Shown: positions 8,665 through 8,895 of the stretch, piece after piece | Position numbering within the stretch: the stretch's first letter is position 1 | Layout: each line of letters starts with the position of its first letter | Source: Alphaproteobacteria bacterium | Lineage (GTDB): Bacteria; Pseudomonadota; Alphaproteobacteria; CAAGCB01; CAG-977 | NCBI GenBank assembly: GCA_900768465.1 | Contig: CAAGCY010000024.1 | Location: 11,794 to 75,793, forward strand | Direction: 5' to 3' | DNA length: 64,000 nt | Notes under the pieces: model-generated | Seen by the model: only the letters and a program-made list of their open reading frames with translations | Databases searched by the model: none | Told to the model about the DNA's origin: nothing | Made by a program: the position numbers and the translations under genes

Positions 8665-8741
8665 CGGGGCGTGGCTCAGCCTGGTAGAGCGTCTGCTTTG
8701 GGAGCAGAATGTCGCAGGTTCGAATCCTGTCGCCCCGACCA
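8665..8741 (+). tRNA. tRNA-Pro (anticodon UGG)
   Basis: A 77-nt cloverleaf. Acceptor stem CGGGGCG/CGCCCCG, D-arm GCTCAGCCTGGTAGAGC, anticodon stem TCTGC/GCAGA with loop TTTGGGA (anticodon TGG), T-arm GCAGGTTCGAATCCTGT, and 3' CCA encoded. Confidence 0.85.
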
Positions 8742-8780
8742 AAAACCAAACCTGTCCGTTGGGCAGGTTTTGTTTTTGGA
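8742..8780 (+). terminator. Hairpin plus T-run downstream of the tRNA (aaacctgtcc gttg ggcaggttt tgtttttgg)
   Basis: Inverted repeat CCTGTCC/GGCAGG followed by a T-rich run. Confidence 0.45.
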
Positions 8781-8786
8781 TTGGGA

Positions 8787-8850
8787 AGCCGGGTTCGAGC
8801 CTGCGAAGCAGGTTCAGCCGAAGCGTCAGCGCAGGCAACGCCGGAACGGC
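8787..8850 (+). repeat. Repeat unit 'A' (gccgggttcgagcctgcgaagcaggttcagccgaagcgtcagcgcaggcaacgccggaacgg); second copy at 21819-21882
   Basis: About 90% identical copies. Each contains a short hairpin (AGCCTGC-gaa-GCAGGTT on the left, AACCTG-cgaaa-CAGGTT on the right) with differences that preserve pairing. Confidence 0.6.
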
Positions 8851-8895
8851 GGCCCGTAGGGCGAGCAAAGCGAGTAAATCCTGTCGCCCCGACCA
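8849..8895 (+). repeat. Direct repeat 'B' (ggcggcccgtagggcgagcaaagcgagtaaatcctgtcgccccgacca). It contains a second copy of the last 19 nt of tRNA-Pro (8877-8895 equals 8723-8741); attL-like
   Basis: Exact 19-nt identity to the tRNA 3' end lies 135 bp downstream of the tRNA. A third copy is at 21764-21808. Confidence 0.75.

Follow-up and report, generated by a model that had tools for sequence, protein, structure and literature searches.

Islands that tyrosine integrases insert at the 3' ends of tRNA genes, the P4-like islands among them, are bounded by direct repeats of 15-50 nt, which are their attachment (att) sites attL and attR. In Mycobacterium tuberculosis, phiRv1 is a prophage-like element with a serine integrase, for which copies of the REP13E12 repeat act as alternative attB sites, and in Streptococcus thermophilus the integrative and conjugative elements (ICEs) ICESt1 and ICESt3 are known for cis-mobilizable elements (CIMEs) and for tandem accretion at the ICE att sites. 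A tRNA 3' end is also repeated in the RtT arrays of Escherichia coli, on which the original papers reportedly date from 1978 to 1991. RtT RNA has been described as being processed from the tyrT transcript, and it may have a role in the stress or stringent response (bioRxiv 10.1101/2024.07.17.603846). Here we describe a tRNA-Pro gene (anticodon TGG) of an uncultured alphaproteobacterium of the human gut, known from a metagenome-assembled genome (MAG), together with a prophage-derived island that lies between two copies of the 3' end of this gene; the analysis covered 64,000 nt of contig CAAGCY010000024.1, which we refer to as the window. We propose, with a probability that we put at about 0.75, that a native array of RtT-like units stood behind tRNA-Pro(TGG), and that a serine-integrase phage inserted into the tail of the first unit and subsequently decayed.

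The original prediction, that the 3' end of the tRNA-Pro gene is repeated to its right, is borne out by ARAGORN and by a shuffle test. The last 19 nt of the gene, AATCCTGTCGCCCCGACCA, are found without mismatch at 8723-8741 (copy 1) and at 8877-8895 (copy 2), and with 3 mismatches at 21793-21811, where the 16 leading nt are exact (21793-21808, copy 3). Only 0.03 matches are expected in dinucleotide shuffles and three were reached in 0 of 100, and therefore the observation of the repeat was correct. The repeated sequence extends well beyond 19 nt. Copy 2 forms the tail of a 110-nt unit (8786-8895) and is identical to the tRNA-Pro 3' end in 19 of 19 positions; this unit is preceded by a 44-nt spacer, T1, and made up of an S segment (8786-8851), an E segment (8852-8879) and the sequence from the CCTGTCGCCCCGA core onward. 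On the right side of the island, 80 nt (21729-21808) repeat the 3' part of this left unit with about 88% identity, and a further 66 nt (21817-21882) repeat its 5' part with 94% identity and are followed by a degenerate tRNA end, CCTGCCGCCCCCGACAAAC, at 21883-21901 (copy 4). The T1 sequence is found 3' of the tRNA and 3' of many unit tails in other strains.

The comparison with strains that lack the island shows to whom these repeats belong. We examined 20 fetched loci, representing 19 distinct contigs (from human-gut metagenomes, and one NCBI MAG); the proteins encoded by the DUF192 and GNAT genes on either side of the island, whose NCBI names have the form "MAG: ... [Acetobacter sp.]", are identical in all 20, and the island is absent from every one. 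Neisseriaceae DNA uptake sequences were looked for as a pointer to the organism, and none were found. In these 19 conspecific contigs the uninterrupted site consists of the DUF192 gene, tRNA-Pro and an array that runs straight on into the GNAT gene, except in L010, where another insert follows. The array begins with T1, continues with 0, 1, 2 or at least 3 long units and ends in a short unit, some of the scaffolds being interrupted by N runs within it. At least one long unit is present in 15 of the 19 contigs, and hence the second copy of the tRNA end occurs without any island; the short unit with its degenerate tail is present in 18 (the tail is deleted in L010), and the number of tRNA-end copies ranges from 1 to at least 4. 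A unit tail is followed by one of three junction types, namely T1 again, TTGAAAAA or CCTTTTGGATTGGG, which results in a period of 154 nt (spacer plus unit), or of 115 nt where units are joined by TTGAAAAA. In L104, L106, L109 and L112 the array has two long units, after which come TTGAAAAA and the short unit. Because island-free conspecifics carry 0 to at least 3 units, copy 2 is native to the host and variable in number. The original prediction itself named the presence of the same duplication in related strains without the island as grounds for its refutation, and this duplication is present in 15 of the 19 contigs; the 154 bp between copies 1 and 2, which had been regarded as the remnant of an earlier element, are one period of the tandem RtT-like repeat. 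Furthermore, no match to the unit tail plus E segment was found in the viral contigs scanned, so that the unit is not phage-borne in that collection, a blastn comparison of the unit with phage genomes gave no match, and neither did a scan of species-representative genomes for the unit tail and the flank of the terminal short unit. In L003 (10478-10554), the T stem of tRNA-Pro carries a compensatory variant (GCAAG...CTTGT) and the tail of the downstream unit still reads CCTGT, and thus the tail is not always identical to the tRNA.

The insert in L010 (10710-14249) is a 3.5-kb element without an integrase that sits at the tail of an RtT-like unit with both junctions intact, the left one reading CGACCA|ATAAAGAAAGCCC... 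and the right one GGTATC-N27-CGACCA|T1. Its content is restricted to a type I methylase, a specificity subunit and a small phage open reading frame (ORF), and it might be mobilised in trans by serine-integrase phages.

The long unit resembles RtT in sequence and genomic arrangement, and it may do so in structure. The Rfam RtT model (RF00391) aligns with 8773-8895 over model positions 1-130 of 130 and is the sole non-tRNA Rfam match in the window with an E value below 0.1. When the tail and the spacer are removed, the body of the unit alone aligns with E. coli RtT with z-scores of 6.2-6.4, and between 0 and 2 of 3000 dinucleotide-shuffled sequences scored as high; scoring schemes made for diverged DNA give about 6.3 for the unit bodies and a harsh one only 2.9. 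A MAFFT alignment with E. coli RtT contains 51 invariant columns, and the minimum-free-energy folds of both RNAs have four hairpins in common within an outer stem. When the E. coli minimum-free-energy structure is placed on this alignment of two lineages only, 89.8% of the cells pair, compared with 31-48% when the partners are slid, and four pairs are altered on both sides in a compensatory manner between the two lineages. In the E. coli tyrT locus used as comparator (L168), three RtT units stand behind a first tRNA-Tyr gene and five more behind a second, and all eight units have a 43-nt hairpin spacer before them and the last 19 nt of tRNA-Tyr at their end; E. coli genomes have between 1 and 14 RtT places, and in Klebsiella annotations RtT adjoins tRNA-Tyr as well. 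Both systems consist of an array immediately behind a tRNA gene, in the same orientation and after a short hairpin spacer, with units of about 110-130 nt, predicted to be structured, that stand in tandem in a strain-variable number, each ending in exactly the last 19 nt, including CCA, of the upstream tRNA. They differ in the partner, which is here tRNA-Pro(TGG) and not tRNA-Tyr, with the tail changed to match; in the host, here a gut MAG under the label Acetobacter sp. and not an enterobacterium; and in the period, which is 154 nt (115 nt with the TTGAAAAA junction) as opposed to about 175-178 nt in E. coli. From these alignments we conclude that the unit is probably a distant homologue of RtT that has become attached to tRNA-Pro, and it may be transcribed and processed as RtT is. 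In a search of 32 loci with a model built from the E. coli units and those of the window species (model R1), no RtT-like unit was seen in other hosts.

The change from host to phage DNA takes place in the tail of the left unit. CGACCA is the invariant sequence common to the attL junctions that we compared, and in the window the switch occurs within CCGACCAAAC; copy 2 is therefore a genuine attL located in a pre-existing unit tail. Between 8877-9293 of the window and 7714-8130 of L096, a related phage integrated in a second host species, the identity is 79% over about 420 nt. The intact relatives L096, L092 and L093 have at their left end, in this order, a P' arm reading AA(A/T)(C/A)TAAAAAA(A)TAAAAACGGATAC..., a small ORF, a DUF2924 gene and a gene for a large serine recombinase of 568 aa, which in L096 (8729-10435) contains Resolvase, Recombinase and Zn_ribbon_recom domains and is encoded about 1 kb from the P' arm. 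A serine recombinase gene beside attP is found in the intact relatives only and is absent from the window; since the gene adjoins attP, this recombinase is probably the enzyme that does the integrating. A metagenome scan with the P' arm yielded 23 contigs, 18 of which join P' to full-length tRNA-Pro genes with TGG, CGG and GGG anticodons and many distinct sequences. In all 18 the host side ends in CGACCA, and it follows that the crossover takes place in or beside CGACCA and that the phage brings no long tRNA homology; the identity made by integration amounts to about 6-9 nt only, with CGACCA(A) as its core. In L156 the core is surrounded by GTATCCGTTTT and AAAACGGATAC, but this contig is rearranged. 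A scan of viral contigs for GTATCCGTTTT-N15-25-CCGACCA gave three matches, all of them chance matches in coding sequence, and L158, which was considered as a possible attP, was rejected as it contains resolvases and an esterase and no phage genes.

In the second host species, one phage (L093) is located directly at tRNA-Pro, and two others (L092 and L096) stand behind one or two repeat units that are unrelated to those of the window and repeat 37 nt of the tRNA end at their own end. It follows from these different positions that the phage also accepts as its target a copy of the tRNA end that is located outside the gene. The layout in this host (L092 1093-1345; L096 7327-7733; L145) is tRNA-Pro, a terminator, one or two 153-nt units, the 37-nt copy and the prophage.

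The 12.9 kb between copies 2 and 3, which had been predicted to be the main element, are a decayed lambda-like prophage as judged by Pfam and by comparison with IMG/VR contigs, so that this part of the prediction stands, as does the assignment of copy 2 to attL; the assignment of copy 3 to attR does not, as is discussed below. Patches at 9236-11886, 13944-17377, 18598-20010 and 21162-21539 are 88-96% identical at the nucleotide level to the phages L011, L013 and L015, and relative to these the early region has internal deletions. No recombinase gene was found in 8896-21728, and a six-frame search of 8896-9560 for an integrase was equally empty; the integrase is absent because its module has been deleted. 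In the intact phage, direct repeats of about 45 nt bracket this module, which comprises the DUF2924 gene, the large serine recombinase gene (568 aa) and an ORF of 170 aa, and the window retains a single hybrid copy of these repeats. As neither integrase nor attR is left, the remnant is immobile. At the other end, the last 8 codons and the stop codon of the tape-measure fragment are read from the RtT-like unit. An identical truncated tape-measure protein is encoded in six other metagenome contigs from other samples (L169-L172 among them), and the remnant has therefore been inherited within a sublineage; the contigs shown stop at the repeat, at or just past the stop codon of this gene, and the array is a point at which assemblies break. 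A protein of 347 aa encoded by low-GC DNA at 20100-21143 has no Pfam match and represents a third accessory insert besides the GmrSD and Fic genes, which are low in GC as well.

The right edge of the island has a different origin from the left one. Homology of the tape-measure gene to L011 and L013 extends to ...GGTTCAG, homology to the host unit begins at GGTTCAGCC, and a microhomology of 7-9 nt joins the two, which indicates an illegitimate deletion and not site-specific recombination. The variant bases that set the 80-nt stretch apart from the left unit recur in a complete host unit of the island-free L108. Copy 3 thus belongs to the next host unit, whose tail it forms, and copy 4 ends the terminal short unit as its degenerate tail. 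In L010, L116 and L156 there are candidate left arms of an attR or attP, which are in register as GGTATC-N27-CGACCA; they are located at the right junction of the 3.5-kb element of L010 (the tail, then T1), at the start of L156 and at the end of L116 before a host tRNA-Arg. They lack the 16-19-mer of the tRNA and share with the tRNA end only CGACCA plus up to about 3 nt. About 1.3 chance occurrences of this pattern are expected in the DNA searched and four were found, three of them at such junctions; the window contains none. A rightward walk along related phages by way of the tape-measure protein led to contigs that stop after a further 5-8 kb and have no att site, L116 being a possible exception. 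At the ends of two related phage contigs, L114 and L119, a tet(W/O/M)-like ribosomal protection gene begins (MKIINIGILAHVDAGKTTLT...).

Several observations weigh against the proposed history. The Rfam score of 31.6 bits lies below the gathering score of 45, as do those of the full-length RtT alignments of the two units in L104 (31.6 and 27.6 bits), and the E value of 1.4e-4 obtained locally becomes only 0.035 for the whole window; because the formal threshold of Rfam is not reached, we call the unit RtT-like and not a member of the family. The outer stem is only 78% paired (the RtT consensus of Rfam has many non-standard pairs), and the covariation comes from two lineages with the structure taken from one of them. 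In addition, a terminator-like hairpin with a T run, as in an intrinsic terminator, precedes each unit, unlike the E. coli spacer, and transcription of the array is therefore uncertain. The units of the second host have a z-score of about 0 against RtT and no Rfam match, and such arrays may therefore have more than one origin. As to the att sites, neither attR nor attP of the phage in the window was recovered, the left arm in L156 begins a rearranged contig, and the pattern in L116 is expected about once by chance.

Some of these points could also be accommodated if the array were a neutral tandem duplication that began inside the tRNA gene, with a coincidental similarity to RtT and no RNA function. 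The low Rfam score and the terminator-like hairpins would fit, as would a copy number that varies freely and includes zero long units. However, coincidence would hardly account for a body-only z-score of about 6.4 against E. coli RtT, nor for the common 19-nt boundary, the layout of spacer and hairpin and the four predicted hairpins in common with their compensatory changes, and we regard a neutral origin as improbable. A second explanation, the one put forward in the original prediction, is that the copies are att scars of successive integrations, the 154 bp being what remains of the earlier element and copies 2 and 3 being attL and attR. This reading cannot account for the 0 to at least 3 units that island-free strains already hold, and as the repeats pre-exist in the host they are not a record of successive integrations. 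It would also leave aside the apparent homology of the unit to E. coli RtT, a tRNA-operon repeat without phage involvement, the candidate left arms, which carry CGACCA only and no 16-19-mer, and the right edge, which is a deletion inside the tape-measure gene and not an att crossover. What speaks for scars is that the unit tail coincides with the target sequence of the phage, that copy 2 is a real attL, that L010 has a different small element at the same tail, and that the second host has arrays of tRNA, unit and 3' copy without similarity to RtT; taken together, we consider this explanation very improbable.

A third explanation accepts the native array and concerns the right edge only. Copy 3 could be a genuine attR if the left arm of attP carried a mimic of about 80 nt of the unit (GGTTCAGCC...GAGTAAATCCTGTCGCCCCGA) and if the deletion in the tape-measure gene had stopped just inside phage DNA. 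Removal of 8893-21808 from the window does leave exactly the array of L001, L003 and L008, and an identity of only about 88% between the 80 nt and the left unit might be expected if the copy were phage-borne. However, the bases responsible for this divergence are present in the complete L108 host unit, and the arrays of L104, L106, L109 and L112 give the structure of the window after one insertion and one deletion. In addition, close relatives of the phage use many hosts without such units and share only CGACCA with their target, and the three candidate left arms are unlike the unit. We therefore hold an attR at copy 3 to be highly improbable.

Returning to a native RtT-like array that was invaded by a phage, the order of events that we infer is as follows. 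The repeat period starts inside the tRNA 3' end, and therefore each unit carries a copy of that end, and unequal crossing-over would vary the number of units between strains. The starting array may have resembled that of L104 or L106, with tRNA, T1, unit, T1, unit, TTGAAAAA and short unit. A lambda-like temperate phage that integrates at the CGACCA end of tRNA-Pro genes would then have inserted at copy 2, the tail of the first unit, and not in the tRNA, because the unit tail reproduces the tRNA half of attB. During the decay that followed, the integrase module would have been lost between the two direct repeats of about 45 nt and several structural genes would have been deleted, and a deletion at a microhomology, extending from within the tape-measure gene to the interior of the second unit, would have removed the tail genes together with attR. 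The features of the locus are listed in Table 1.

Table 1. Features of the tRNA-Pro array, the prophage remnant and the host flanks, in window coordinates
Feature	Position	Strand	Basis and remarks
Left host flank, DUF192 gene	8187..8648	+	Pfam; identical protein in island-free contigs
tRNA-Pro (anticodon TGG)	8665..8741	+	ARAGORN; Rfam tRNA 68.8 bits; last 19 nt (8723-8741) are copy 1
Spacer T1	8742..8785	+	Terminator scan: terminator-like hairpin 8748-8770, then T run; arrays in L001-L112
RtT-like long unit	8786..8895	+	Rfam RF00391, body-only alignment, pair counts
attL crossover zone CCGACCAAAC	8889..8899	+	attL comparison: window, L096, L093, L101, L010, 18 metagenome contigs
Phage P' arm (AAACTAAAAAATAAAAACGGATACC..., hairpin then T run) and leader region preceding DUF2924 in intact relatives	8896..9235	+	Comparison with L096
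Integrase-module deletion junction	9236..9293	+	Matches both L096 8073-8130 and L096 11071-11128; three-way alignment; Pfam on L096 genes
Remnant early region: truncated DUF6291 protein (9495-10031), C-terminal fragment of N6/N4 DNA methylase (10178-10837), small ORFs	9495..11886	+	Pfam; 88-96% nucleotide identity to L011, L013, L015
GmrSD-type restriction enzyme, accessory, GC about 33%	11989..13896	+	Pfam GmrSD_N, GmrSD_C; 88% nucleotide identity to related phage L029
Terminase large subunit, nuclease domain only, frameshifted, ATPase part deleted	14232..15232	+	Pfam GpA_nuclease split over two ORFs; 1.5 kb missing relative to L011
Lambda-family portal protein	15892..17364	+	Pfam Phage_portal_2, E 4.5e-110; IMG/VR relatives 92-94% identical
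Fic/DOC protein, accessory	17379..18536	-	Pfam Fic_N, Fic
S49 prohead protease, fused across a 4.3-kb deletion of capsid genes	18674..20029	+	Pfam Peptidase_S49; blast against L011
Tape-measure protein, N-terminal fragment (181 aa)	21207..21752	+	Pfam TMP_3; comparison with L013; junction alignment
Deletion junction of tape-measure gene and host unit	21722..21735	+	Microhomology CAGGT(A/T)CAG; phage tail genes and attR gone
Truncated RtT-like long unit without its first 25 nt	21729..21808	+	58.4 bits with model R1; tail 21793-21808 is copy 3, then junction type TTGAAAAA
Terminal short unit (S segment and degenerate tail CCTGCCGCCCCCGACAAAC, copy 4)	21817..21901	+	Array comparison
Right host flank, GNAT acetyltransferase gene	22018..22464	-	Pfam; identical protein in island-free contigs

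To the right of the array, the GNAT acetyltransferase gene forms a low-GC pair with a gene for a D12-class adenine methylase (22018-23518, minus strand). The pair is intact in most island-free contigs; the methylase gene is split in L004, and the GNAT gene is missing in L010. Elsewhere in the window, ARAGORN predicts an 80-nt tRNA-Arg(CCT) at 273-352 on the minus strand, where the Rfam tRNA model is silent in a whole-window search with E values up to 0.5. A protein of 1114 aa encoded at 25336-28680 on the minus strand has internal repeats rich in Ala, Gly and Ser and almost no Pfam match, and its length ranges from 1099 to 1156 aa among strains. A sub-threshold match to the Rfam rimP leader lies at 51159-51259 on the plus strand (31.6 bits, with a gathering score of 47 and an E value of 0.35).

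The locus shares features with each of the integration systems mentioned at the outset. As with phiRv1, an element with a large serine recombinase has its attB in a repeated chromosomal sequence, which provides several landing sites per genome; unlike there, what is repeated is a tRNA 3' end, in a tandem array beside the gene, and the evidence that one species uses more than one copy comes here from the second host (L093 compared with L092 and L096). The island adjoins a tRNA gene, has tRNA-end repeats on both sides and has an empty site in related strains, as P4-like islands do, whereas the intact relatives encode a large serine recombinase, the identity due to integration is about 6-9 nt, and the long repeats are native to the host. 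Tandem att-like sites with short integrase-less segments between them, such as the L010 element with both of its att sites, are reminiscent of CIMEs; the 154-bp segment of the window is in contrast an RtT-like repeat and not a decayed element.

For the calling of island and prophage boundaries, these findings mean that tRNA-end repeats flanking an island may be native RtT-type repeats and not att sites; at this locus the true attR has been lost, and the actual identity at the crossover is only about 6-9 nt. They also document gut phages of one family that integrate, presumably by their serine integrase, at the CGACCA end of tRNA-Pro, with all three anticodons found (TGG, CGG and GGG), and that also accept a copy outside the gene. 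As cargo, the array of the window carries GmrSD and Fic proteins, and that of L010 a type I methylase together with the specificity subunit. It is conceivable, though we think it unlikely, that RtT-type arrays are multi-copy landing pads, in which the copied attB half would draw tRNA-end phages off the tRNA and its terminator, prophages and integrase-less cargo elements would accumulate and be exchanged, and the match between tail and tRNA would be kept by selection as well as by descent. If the homology to RtT is true, repeats of this type reach from the tRNA-Tyr operons of enterobacteria to the tRNA-Pro of a gut bacterium, with the tail re-matched to the new tRNA, and the function of RtT would become testable by comparison.

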